64,000 bases of DNA, taken from assembly GCA_964016885.1 (NCBI GenBank), contig OZ024754.1, positions 12,896,001 through 12,960,000 of the forward strand. The letters run 5' to 3'. This stretch comes from Eledone cirrhosa (lineage: Eukaryota). The notes beneath the pieces were generated by a model. The model made no database searches. It saw only the letters and a program-made list of their open reading frames with translations, and had not been told where the DNA came from. Of this stretch, positions 10,487-15,430 are shown one piece after another. The translations under genes were made by a program, and so were the position numbers. How positions within the stretch are numbered: the first letter of the stretch is position 1; every line of letters starts with the position of its first letter.

Positions 10487-12734
10487 AATTTCAGGTTATC
10501 AATAATGTAGTGATAATATATCGTTACGTTAGAGATGAACAGCGTACGTGCAGGTCTGCTAAACGAGTATAAATTATATTCCGGAGAAAATGTAGAAAGG
10601 ATGAATATAAAATGAAAGTGCTTTTTTAAAAAAAGGAATTTATTAGGTATTGACATATGTTTCTGTAACAGACTGAATACCTATGTATCGCTGCTTGCGT
10701 AATCATATAATGTTAGCAAGTATTCGATAGCAAATGTATAATCAGTTGTCAGTTCTTCAGAGATTTTGGATAAATTGGATAAAATCAGAAAAATTGAAGT
10801 ATTTAGATTAGTAATAGTGGAAGAAACAGAGGGGATAGTATATGACAGATGGTAAATTAATTTACTGCTAAACAAGTATATAATGGGTTTCTAATGAGAA
10901 TACCATGAGTAAATCTAAATAAGAATTTTGGGAGTGCCAATTTTAATCTCTACTTGACCAACTGGACAGTGGACAGGGCTGGTCATTTGGTGCAGTAGTA
11001 TTAATTATAAAGTGTCAATTGGGGAAGGGGGAGATTTCGATTGCTACTAAATAACATCAATGCTAGTAGCCAGCTGGTATGTGCATTAGGGAATTGAATC
11101 AAGAAATCAGAAATCTCATTTTATCTATAGCAGTTTGTATTAAAAGGTAAATAATAGAAGAGTTGATAGAATTAAGAGTAATAAAGAATGTTAATATCTA
11201 TTTTGACAATCAAACGGGGATAGAGACAGGCGTTCAATCCTGGTAGTATTTATAATATGAAAATGTAGATTTTAAGCGATGGTTACAGTATAACGATCGC
11301 TCTATTCTGTTATTTAATAAAATGTTTTTGGATTTCATAATACAAAATAATTCTACATTACATAATTTACAAAATTCCTGTCCATGGGATAATGGGGGGG
11401 CAGCCGCTATTATATCCCATTTTAGGTGAAATTGTTGGTTATTTTCACGCAGCTGCCAAGCCTTGTCTGCGAGTGTTGTTACATAACGCTGGTTTTCATG
11501 TTTTATCGAGTAACGATGTCTATAAAGGCGTGATTTGAAGGAGGTGGCAGTAGATCCCACATAGTACCACTTCTGTCTATCCGATTCGATAGTACATTTG
11601 TATACGATGTTGCGTTCAAGACATTGATTGTTCAACGGACACATTCCTGGTTGGACACAGTTGCAATTATAATTTTGCGTTGTTGTATTGCCATGGATGG
11701 GTTGATGAGGTTGCTTATGTAGGACAGGATGTTGTTTTGTGATGTTATAGCTAATGTTTTACGTGTATTGTTATGTGTTGGAAGGCGTTTATACAACCGT
11801 TTTGCGTTAAGCTTTTTTATATGTTGTTCAATATTAGGGGCGGTTGAATATGAAAGTCGAATAGTGTTAGGGTTTAAGATTTTATTATATTTATGTGATG
11901 TTGGAAAGTGTTTTTTAACTAATCGAAAGAATTTTGAGGGTAGATTGGTTTTAATAGAGTTGTTATAGATCGGGTTGTACCAAATATACTCCTTACATCG
12001 CCTTCTGTTTGGTGGTGTGCGACTATTATTGTGTCTATTGCGGTAGTGTATGTATGGTGGTGATTCTGTGCTATTTCTACTCCTATGGGATTTATTTTGG
12101 GTGTTTTGGTGATCTTTGACTATATACTCTATATTATCTAGGTGACCGGCTTTCCTAAGTGCATCATCATAATATTCGGCATGTTCTTTGAAGGTTTGTT
12201 GGTTGGACGACAGGCGGGAGATTCTAAGAGAAACATTTCTAGGGATGGATTTAATTATAGAGAGTGGATGGTTAGAACTCGTATTTACATATTTAAGGTT
12301 CTCATTTAGTTTATGGAACGGTTTAATCGTATCTGTATTGAGATTGAAAGTAACATCAAGGAAATTGACCTCTTTGAGGTTATATTCAAATGTAATATTT
12401 AATCCTAGTTCCTTAAAAAGCTTTCTGATATTTTTACGCATCCTTTCTAAATTCTGGTTATTCATATGCTTAACTAAAAGGAGCGCATCGTCACGGTAGA
12501 TTCCACCGTGGAGATCCTTGAATTTTCCTTGTAATCTGTGGGTGATATAAATTCCCACAAGATCTGTTACTTCCGCCGAATCATTAGAACCCATAGTGAT
12601 ATCAAAATTAGAAGGTCTATCTTTGCGAACCCAATAGCTATCATCGAATTTAACTATAGTTTTCCTCGCTTCCATAATAATTTTAATTTCAGCATCCGTA
12701 AGGTCGGAATTATCCTTAGCGAACGAAAGAGCTT

Positions 12735-13350
12735 TGTACATTTTTAACTTAATTGTTTAAGCGTCAGTCATACAAAAGTGAGTTACAAACGAAACGAAAT
12801 TTAATTTCGTTTCGTTATTTGTTTTTATCGTCTCCGTTGAACCGGTACGTACTCACGCTCTATGCAAATTAGTCTGCCCACTACTAATTTTCATAGAAAA
12901 AGCATATAACGATATGTGCTTTTACGATTCTCTAGAAAGGCCGGAAGATAGGTAAATATTGCTGATGAGTTGTAACAACAACGAAACTAGTTCAATATTC
13001 CTTGTCTGGCTTTCTGTAGAATAGAGGAAAGGTGTTTCCTCAAAAACCAGTATGACTCTAAAAACCGGTTTGTCTGTGTGTTTACATACAGAATAGCTGG
13101 ACACTCACAGTAAAGTGACCAGTGAAGAACTCGGTACATCTACATATGTATACGTGTGTGTATTCATATGCATACTAGTATTTCAGTATACATATGTGGA
13201 TGTACATTTTTAACTTAATTGTTTAAGCGTCAGTCATACAAAAGTGAGTTACAAACGAAACGAAATTTAATTTCGTTTCGTTATTTGTTTTTATCGTCTC
13301 CGTTGAACCGGTACGTACTCACGCTCTATGCAAATTAGTCTGCCCACTAC
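12735..13350 (+). mobile_element. Retrozyme-like non-coding tandem element, 466-bp monomer (1.3 copies) with one HHR
   Basis: 12735-12884 is repeated at 13201-13350. It contains the octamer ATGCAAAT (12862, 13328), the hairpin AACGAAACGAAAT/ATTTCGTTTCGTT and an HHR at 12955-12999. Homologous to 60770-61306. Confidence 0.75.
12955..12999 (+). ncRNA. Minimal type I hammerhead ribozyme, canonical core
   Basis: AATATTG-CTGATGA-GTTGT-AACA-ACAAC-GAAA-CTAG-TT-CAATATT. Confidence 0.9.
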
Positions 13351-13901
13351 AAGGGTAAATTAGAGAACATAGAAATAAAAATAGAATCTACACACAGAAA
13401 AGACGCAATGTTTAGACAAATCACAGAGGCAATAAACATAAAAGAATTACAACCAAAATTAAATAGAAAATATGAGTGGAACAGCAACATCACAACTTAC
13501 AATTAAGGACAAAATGAAAACACACACACACATAGAACAAACAACCAACCAGTAACATGTAAATAAACAAATAAATAAATGAACATAAATACACACAGAC
13601 ACCCGGATGTGGCGCATGCGCAGACTGAGCACACAACACACATACAGAAACAAAATGGCGTAGGACAGAACAAAGGAGAGGCACAAAAACAAAGAAAGGA
13701 ATCCCCAGTCACTGAAGAGGTCACAGAGTGTGTGACGAAAGAACTATGACAAAATATAAACAACTATCTGGTTGTGGAACCAACCAACCAGAAATTTATA
13801 AATTTATAAATTTATTATAAATTTATTATAATAAATTGAAGTGAAAGCAACTGGTGCGTGTGTTTCTTATTGGCAACATGACCCTCCCAAAGTATAACAA
13901 T
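13351..13901 (+). mobile_element. Solo pseudo-LTR (GIY-YIG C-terminus + 3' UTR + HHR) of the Penelope family at 39.3-41.7 kb
   Basis: Nearly identical to 41086-41669; encodes KGKLENIEIKIESTHRKDAMFRQITEA...LNRKYEWN. Confidence 0.9.
13708..13750 (+). ncRNA. Minimal type I hammerhead ribozyme
   Basis: GTCA-CTGAAGA-G-GTCACA-GAGTG-TGTGAC-GAAA-GAAC-TA-TGAC. Confidence 0.85.
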
Positions 13902-15430
13902 ATATATGTATATATATATATATATATATATGTATATATATATATATGTATATATATATATATGTATATATATATATATGTATATATATATATGTATATA
14001 TATATATATATATGTATATATATATATATATATATGTATATATATATGTATATATATATATATATATGTATATATATATATGTATATATATATATATGTA
14101 TATATATATATGTATATATATATGTATATATGTATATATATATATATGTGTATATATATATATGTATATATATATATATGTATATATATATATATGTATA
14201 TATGTATATATATATATATATATATGTATATATATATATGTATATATATATATATGTAGATAAATCTACCAAGAGTTTACGGTAGTGTCCAATCCGTATG
14301 AAGAACTCAATGTATTCCGGATATCATGGAAAGAAGAGATGTAATGAAAAATCATATATGTATATATATATATATGTATATATATGTATATATATGTATA
14401 TATGTATATATATGTATATATATATATGTATATATATATATATGTGTATATATATATATGTATATATATGTATATATATGTATATATGTATATATATGTA
14501 TATATATATATGTATATATATATATATGTGTATATATATATATGTATATATATATATATGTGTATATATATATATGTATATATATATATGTATATATATA
14601 TATATGTATATATATGTATATATATGTATATATGTATATATATGTATATATATATATGTATATATATATATATGTGTATATATATATATGTATATATATA
14701 TATGTATATATATATATATATATGTATATATATATATATATGTATATATATATATATGTATATATATATATGTATATATATATATATATGTATATACATA
14801 TATATATATATACATATATATACATATATATGTATATATATATATATGTATATATATATGTATATATATATATATATATATGTATGTATATATATATGTA
14901 TATATATATATATATATATATATATATATATGTATATATATATATATGTATATATATATATATATGTATATATATATATATATATATATATGTATATATA
15001 TATATATGTATATATATATATATATGTATATATATATATATGTATATATATATATATATGTATATATATATATATATATATGTATATATATATATATATG
15101 TATATATATATATATATATATATATATATATATATATATATATATATGTATATATATATATGTATATATATATATGTATATATATATATATATATATATA
15201 TATATATATATGTATATATATATATATATATGTATATGTATATATATATATATGTATATATATATATATATGTATATATATATATATATGTATATATATA
15301 TATATATGTATATATATATATATATGTATATATATATATATATGTATATATATATATATATATATATATATATATATATATATATATATATATATATATA
15401 TATATATATATATATATATATATATATATA
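13902..15430. repeat. (TA)n/(TATG) microsatellite containing a 100-bp inverted copy (14257-14355) of 9352-9450
   Basis: GTAGATAAATCTACCAAGAGTTTACGG...GAAAAATCA is the reverse complement of 9352-9450. Confidence 0.93.

Follow-up and report, generated by a model that had tools for sequence, protein, structure and literature searches.

A three-part composite of two Penelope-like elements and a candidate retrozyme in the genome of Eledone cirrhosa

The stretch of DNA analysed here, referred to as the window, comprises 64,000 nt of the Eledone cirrhosa genome (assembly GCA_964016885.1, contig OZ024754.1, positions 12,896,001 to 12,960,000 of the forward strand), a TA-rich genome of 3.0 Gb. It contains an insertion in which pieces of three repeat families follow each other without spacers (Table 1). 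They are PA, a Penelope-like element (PLE) that probably belongs to the Hydra clade and is truncated within its reverse transcriptase (RT); RZ, a non-coding repeat that we consider a candidate non-long terminal repeat (non-LTR) retrozyme; and PB, the 3' end of a second, probably Neptune-type PLE with its pseudo-LTR (pLTR). In the assembly, the composite consists of three parts, not four. A first-pass annotation, made from the letters of the window, had let the insertion begin at 11234 and had added a 'Penelope A terminal fragment' as its last part. PA homology extends to 10488, however, and the terminal fragment belongs to a separate family, named C here, with TA on both flanks.

Table 1. Parts of the composite and neighbouring features in the window
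Positions	Strand	Feature	Remarks
9350..9454	+	Family C tail fragment	2 mismatches to the piece at 14253; about 1 kb of TA before PA
9455..10487		(TA)n tract	Adjoins the 3' end of PA
10488..12734	-	PA, PLE of Hydra type by its motifs	5'-truncated within the RT; long terminus abuts (TA)n
12735..13350	+	RZ, candidate non-LTR retrozyme	616 nt, 1.32 units of 466 nt
12951..13001	+	Predicted type I hammerhead of RZ	Core 12962-12986; minimal palindromic stem III
13349..13903	+	PB, PLE of Neptune type by its motifs	3' 555 nt with endonuclease C-terminus, pLTR and hammerhead core (13712-13740); short terminus at (TA)n
13904..14252		(TA)n tract	Separates PB from the family C piece
14253..14355	-	Tail-only fragment of family C (family positions 901-1003)	TA on both sides; outside the composite

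As the annotation had described, an inverted copy of 9352-9450 follows the TA tract to the right of PB (14256-14355, with two mismatches). This piece has no match to PA, and an identical copy was found at C3:313766434. With its two TA flanks, it shows no connection to the composite. Family C is represented by three pieces within 5.5 kb, the two listed in Table 1 and one at 8940-9212. The breakpoint of its tail fragments is nearly constant (C899-901) in the window and at the loci L062 and L063. Stem II of the family C hammerhead measures about 100 nt (fold z -6.3), and no open reading frame (ORF) was located in this family.

The left inner junction is blunt: PA homology stops at 12734 and RZ begins at the next base, with no nucleotide in common. 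Position 12734 is the stop point in all 39 other PA matches, and the PA copies that were fetched continue differently from the window (GAGCTT followed by CATGTAG in 29/29). The heptamer TGTACAT, which had been reported as an overlap at this break, belongs to RZ alone; the reading frame of PA just continues into RZ. Another candidate microhomology, the ATGTA that PA and RZ have in common two bases off the join, was rejected as well: had it been used, a CA would have been retained, and this CA is missing from the window. At the right inner junction, the first description proved accurate. RZ stops at 13350 and PB starts at 13349 without a spacer, with a 2-nt overlap (AC; 3 nt, TAC, against minority PB variants), and neither inner junction has a TA array or a target duplication. 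Overlaps of 0 and 2 nt are within the normal range for the inner joins of same-family insertions. RZ and PB have the same orientation, and PA has the opposite one. The outer ends are normal family termini (PA long at 10488, PB short at 13903), while both ends of RZ differ from the usual termini of its family; positions 12735-12884 and 13201-13350 of RZ are the same 150 nt (100% identity).

The junctions of the composite were not found elsewhere in the genome among the candidates scored (40 of 281, 26 of 26 and 40 of 118). Among these, either junction was present solely in the window, and the composite was therefore rejected as a propagating unit. We found no remainder of the PA 5' part in the window or in the 10 kb upstream, which rules against a clean nested insertion into PA.

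The assignment of the two PLEs follows the motif criteria for Hydra and Neptune in the cited portions of Craig 2021 (PMC8557442). A full PA frame of 783 aa at L036 contains RIRWK and RADKT, in line with the Hydra motifs RWK and DKT, and forms a single ORF with a C-terminal GIY-YIG domain. It has the linker CNCVQPGMC (CxCx5C), a single Cys across the GIY-YIG span (hence no CCHH) and the motifs CKLC and CNH near its end. PA also inserts in (TA)n, as is required of the Hydra clade. On these motifs, PA would be a Hydra clade PLE. The PB-type protein at L179 displays the linker CIDKKCITC, the stretch VVYSIRCTEGQC...YIGET with CCHH in the GIY-YIG domain, and a C-terminal endonuclease (EN). Linker and CCHH point to a Neptune-type element, with Nematis formally still possible. 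The PA and PB proteins are unrelated (BLASTP best E 0.041), which agrees with the earlier view that PB starts in the GIY-YIG tail of a Penelope family unrelated to PA. A Pfam search yielded no RT or GIY-YIG match in the frames of the window or in the full PA and PB frames. The window contains an ordinary PB insertion as well (39277-41729), which is two-armed with a short left and a long right end and 90-93% identical to the copy at L180.

The annotation had assumed three hammerhead-bearing RNAs. We found compact cores in RZ and PB and none in PA (spacer up to 60 nt). The core in the PB pLTR is minimal, and 21 of 200 shuffled sequences were as stable, so that its fold alone does not stand above shuffles. 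On the minus strand of PA (10659-10760), a long hairpin is enclosed by CUGAAGA and GAAAC, which are some 90 nt distant from each other, and stem I is not evident. This element may be a non-canonical or dead hammerhead.

RZ forms tandem arrays of non-coding monomers with a period of 466 nt at many loci (40 scored of 139 candidates). Its hammerhead has a fold z of -3.34, and none of 200 shuffled sequences was as stable; a search of the window against Rfam at gathering score gave 0 matches, the RZ hammerhead included. Tandem monomers and a type I hammerhead argue for a non-LTR retrozyme, for which self-cleavage and a circular RNA are predicted. According to the hammerhead consensus, the cut would presumably fall after 12992. 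The copy in the window passes through this predicted site. An RNA template, if there was one, would therefore have been circular or an uncut multimer. A derivation of RZ from the pLTR of PA or PB was rejected for want of a significant match (best E 0.26).

Past its long terminus, RZ has the words CTCC-GTTGAAC (12829-12845), and by eye PA has CTCC-n6-GTTGAAC past its own long terminus. Related words were seen by eye in other Hydra-type ends, and PB is without them. This likeness suggests that a Hydra-type RT may normally drive RZ. A second retrozyme-like sequence, weakly similar to RZ, lies on the minus strand at 60860-61290 (hammerhead core 61012-60988). At L230, we observed an RZ derivative with an internal TA tract in every monomer and nested inverted arrays. 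The window also contains six tandem units of 406 nt, 98% alike and ending at TA (23574-26005), in which no CUGANGA-GAAA core was found with a spacer of up to 60 nt.

Elsewhere, copies of PA, PB and RZ are mostly two-armed, and their outer ends are both 3' termini facing (TA)n. Each family has one short and one long terminus, spaced by 102 nt in PA, 57 nt in PB and about 70 nt in RZ, whose termini lie at monomer positions 91-94 (long) and 20-25 (short). One long and one short end per insertion were found in 21/21 typed copies of PA (of 37 loci, 15 lack an inverted arm and 1 is untyped) and in 15/17 typed copies of PB (of 39 loci, 12 have no arm and 10 are untyped). The RZ arrays at L002-L229 follow the same pattern: all 22 typed cases are two-armed, and a long terminus at one outer end is paired with a short one at the other, both at (TA)n (44 sites; the motif gave one end or none at 22, and L226, L227 and L230 were left out). 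The sections of Frangieh 2024 (PMC11167929) used here relate the tail, which they term unique to PLEs, to two start sites of the RT. With its long and short ends, RZ therefore appears to carry the footprint of a PLE, and this footprint is better evidence for a putative mobilisation of the retrozyme by PLEs than one chimera. A separate element in the window (1564-5442) has inverted arms of 1262 nt that are 99.8% identical and lies between TA tracts.

The three parts of the composite differ in their rare substitutions: 12 in 2247 nt of PA (10 of them strictly private), 1 in 616 nt of RZ and none in 550 nt of PB. The annotation had proposed to compare the divergence of the segments, and the comparison did not yield one age for all parts, with 12/2247 in PA against 1/1166 in RZ and PB together (Fisher p=0.044, borderline). 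PA also has a private 7-nt deletion near 11740 that causes a frameshift and is absent from all 37 other loci (checked directly). A search aimed at five private sites retrieved no other carrier of the private PA alleles among 40 scored of 1638 candidates (best 98%). These counts make PA appear older than RZ and PB, at borderline strength. RNA editing was rejected as a source of the private changes in PA, where 1/10 is A>G on the sense strand and the spectrum resembles that of other copies. In RZ, the sole rare change reads A>G on the RNA strand, possibly as a scar of editing; a single site proves nothing. When we calculated relative likelihoods from the ages with a flat log prior, they were 0.39-0.73 for PA followed by RZ and PB together, 0.06-0.38 for PA and RZ together followed by PB, 0.17-0.21 for three events and 0.01-0.07 for one event.

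The explanation that we consider best, tentatively and at somewhat less than an even chance, is that PA came first and that later a single cDNA primed on PB jumped onto RZ RNA and was end-joined into PA. An older Hydra-type copy of PA would already have been at the site when the neighbouring (TA)n was cut. Priming would then have taken place at the short start site of PB, about 550 nt of PB would have been copied, and the enzyme would have jumped to a circular or uncut multimeric RZ RNA, of which it would have copied 616 nt through the hammerhead cut site. In the final step, end-joining of the cDNA to the left end, which had been resected, would have cost the TA spacer and any PA sequence farther 5'. 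For the RZ-PB junction, a template jump from Penelope to retrozyme is likely a good reading, given that both parts have the same orientation, overlap by 2 nt and are very young. PA would have been primed from target DNA, to judge by its opposite orientation and its own long terminus.

The idea of serial template switching in one event is therefore retained in part. The jump between RZ and PB stands, while a single event with four parts does not: the last piece is from another family and isolated by TA, PA is flipped and has its own normal terminus, and the one-event likelihood is low (0.01-0.07). Since serial switching alone would not flip PA, a workable form of the idea needs two-ended priming, that is, one break whose ends were primed on PA RNA (left) and PB RNA (right), with one jump onto RZ. 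The long PA end and the short PB end are indeed the complementary pair seen in single insertions, the inner overlaps are in the normal range, and a Penelope protein is reported to cleave and extend both strands in vitro (PMC11167929). We nevertheless think such an event improbable, in view of its age-only likelihood, of the missing source locus for the private PA alleles among the 40 candidates scored and of the origin of PA and PB in distant clades. The complementarity is expected in 50% of cases by chance. It failed in all four other mixed units whose termini could both be typed by eye (0/4 long/short; L116, L209 and L215 are long/long and L198 is short/short).

Alternatively, PA and RZ could have arrived together, driven by a Hydra-type element, as the arms of a single insertion with the long PA end on the left and the short RZ end on the right; PB would later have inserted into the right TA tract and removed the last 340 nt or so of RZ. 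Two-armed copies normally have a head-to-head arrangement and a blunt inner join, and the CTCC-GTTGAAC words of RZ resemble the spaced ones of PA by eye. L116 provides an independent RZ-PA join with matching ages (0.54% and 0.42%). Its termini are long/long, however, and while the PA rate would predict about 3.3 rare changes in the RZ of the window, there is 1; if this A>G is an editing scar, the likelihood drops to 0.06-0.08. We regard this explanation as unlikely, though a serious alternative. At L116 (5970-9901) and L217, the independent RZ arm is connected to a full-length PA by way of a short inverted RZ piece and a 19-nt duplicated filler.

Several observations weigh against our preferred order of events. 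The age gap is of borderline significance and depends on 13 changes. The counts of RZ and PB are lowered by two circumstances, the use of the window copy as the query and the higher homoplasy of these two parts; neither PB alone (0/550) nor RZ alone (1/616) is significantly younger than PA. The combination of PA long with PB short fits the end rule of a single event, at a chance rate of one half. In addition, joins without TA are common: they were found at 7/31 RZ sites (L098, L099, L111-L115) plus L116, at 12/39 PB loci and at 2/37 PA loci. Repeats make up 54% of the non-simple flank bases, so that a repeat partner is expected by chance. RZ and PB are often neighbours across a TA tract (L011, L187, L228), and a deletion could therefore make the same RZ-PB join. 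Finally, no listed piece from four read runs bridges either junction of the composite; these runs consist of short unitigs or restriction-site-associated DNA (RAD) reads swamped by other copies, the longest pieces are those listed, and they may come from other individuals.

The lack of bridging pieces would also fit a misassembly of non-adjacent repeat copies. We consider this very improbable, not only because of the nature of the runs but also since an assembler has no basis for merging copies that overlap by 0-2 nt and comparable joins were seen at further loci.

The frequency of joins without TA has a bearing on two further points. The annotation had taken the absence of TA arrays and target duplications at the inner junctions as a sign of one event. 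With 12/39 PB and 2/37 PA loci showing such joins, this feature does not discriminate. It is also possible that three independent insertions in one TA cluster were fused by deletions, which arose either later or at the target during insertion of the next element, without any template switch. The partners at these joins are other PLE ends or ORFs and pieces that resemble short or long interspersed nuclear elements (SINE-like, LINE-like); we assigned the labels RTE-like, CR1-like and SINE-like by what we take to be their likeness. An enrichment of repeat partners at the joins was not established against the 54% background. At L099, L112, L116, L209 and L215, the partner has retained its own inversion, an outcome to be expected of a deletion that spans a TA spacer, and the 0/4 long/short among the other mixed units stands against 21/21, 15/17 and 22/22 in same-family units. 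Fusion by deletion would, on the other hand, require two deletions and two independent, very young neighbours, and its age-only likelihood is 0.17-0.21. All in all, we hold it to be rather unlikely, though a strong rival to the preferred explanation.

L113 points the opposite way from the joins that keep inversions. Here, an internal LINE-like piece of 55-60 nt (7334-7395), tail-out at TA and ending in TACAT, is joined to RZ, an arrangement that would be hard to produce by one deletion. RZ or PB is also joined without TA to pieces that we presume to be LINE-like at L111, L114, L115, L176 and L191, and a contig of read run X6 has a similar LINE-like sequence joined to RZ.

The locus can be compared with known systems. 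As far as described in the cited parts of Craig 2021 (PMC8557442) and Frangieh 2024 (PMC11167929), two-armed EN-bearing PLEs with inverted pLTRs and a one-sided tail have the same outer 3' termini at (TA)n, the same two alternative termini per family and an inner join where the arms share few bases or none. In the composite, however, the arms would come from distant clades (Hydra- and Neptune-type) with a retrozyme between them, and the tails are 57-102 nt long, versus 30-40 in the known EN-bearing PLEs of these sources. RZ shares the non-coding monomer with one type I hammerhead, the tandem arrays at many loci and the PLE-containing genome with metazoan non-LTR retrozymes, as outlined in portions of Cervera and de la Pena 2020 (PMC7229834) and Li, Clavereau and Pollet 2026 (10.64898/2026.07.22.740005). 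Its 466 nt exceed the 170-400 nt given in the former and are within the 51-972 nt of the latter. The same portions propose a mobilisation of retrozymes by PLEs on the grounds of co-occurrence, shared hammerheads and pLTR homology; insertion ends are not described in them. RZ differs from the homology argument in that it has no significant match to PA or PB and yet displays the two-terminus footprint of PLEs. In searches of open-access literature, we found no description of retrozyme insertion ends or of PLE-retrozyme chimeras.

There is also a parallel to LINE-1 chimeras and target rearrangements, as treated in parts of Law and Burns 2026 (PMC13174262) and Mendez-Dorantes 2024 (PMC11702581): the 3' end of a retroelement is joined to the copy of an unrelated RNA, chimeric and sequential insertions have to be told apart, and end processing rearranges the target. 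By analogy, the composite may work like a LINE-1 chimera or target deletion in a PLE setting that lacks target site duplications (TSDs). In these sources, TSDs and poly(A) bracket a single LINE-1 event, whereas (TA)n-targeting PLEs leave neither; TSDs are not visible in (TA)n targets in the cited portion of Craig 2021 (PMC8557442). Alleles or orthologues are therefore needed to tell the events apart.

The annotation had seen in the locus physical evidence that Penelope RT mobilises retrozymes and copies across lineages. We would call it a hint, insufficient as proof alone. It is only a hint that Penelope enzymes might jump onto retrozyme RNA, and one of many such joins. A broader possibility, which we regard as doubtful, is that Penelope RTs from distant clades take up the RNAs of one another's elements, and retrozyme circles as well, at a single break, and that the many joins without TA between Penelope, retrozyme and LINE-like pieces in this genome would record routine template capture across lineages. 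Within this view, it is conceivable though questionable to a similar degree that a Neptune-type enzyme jumped onto an RZ circle and copied through its ligation site. The locus does not suffice as proof by itself, but it yields three allele predictions that separate the models. Proof of a cDNA chimera between a PLE and a retrozyme would document physically that both RNAs had met one enzyme, and it would show copying across clades.

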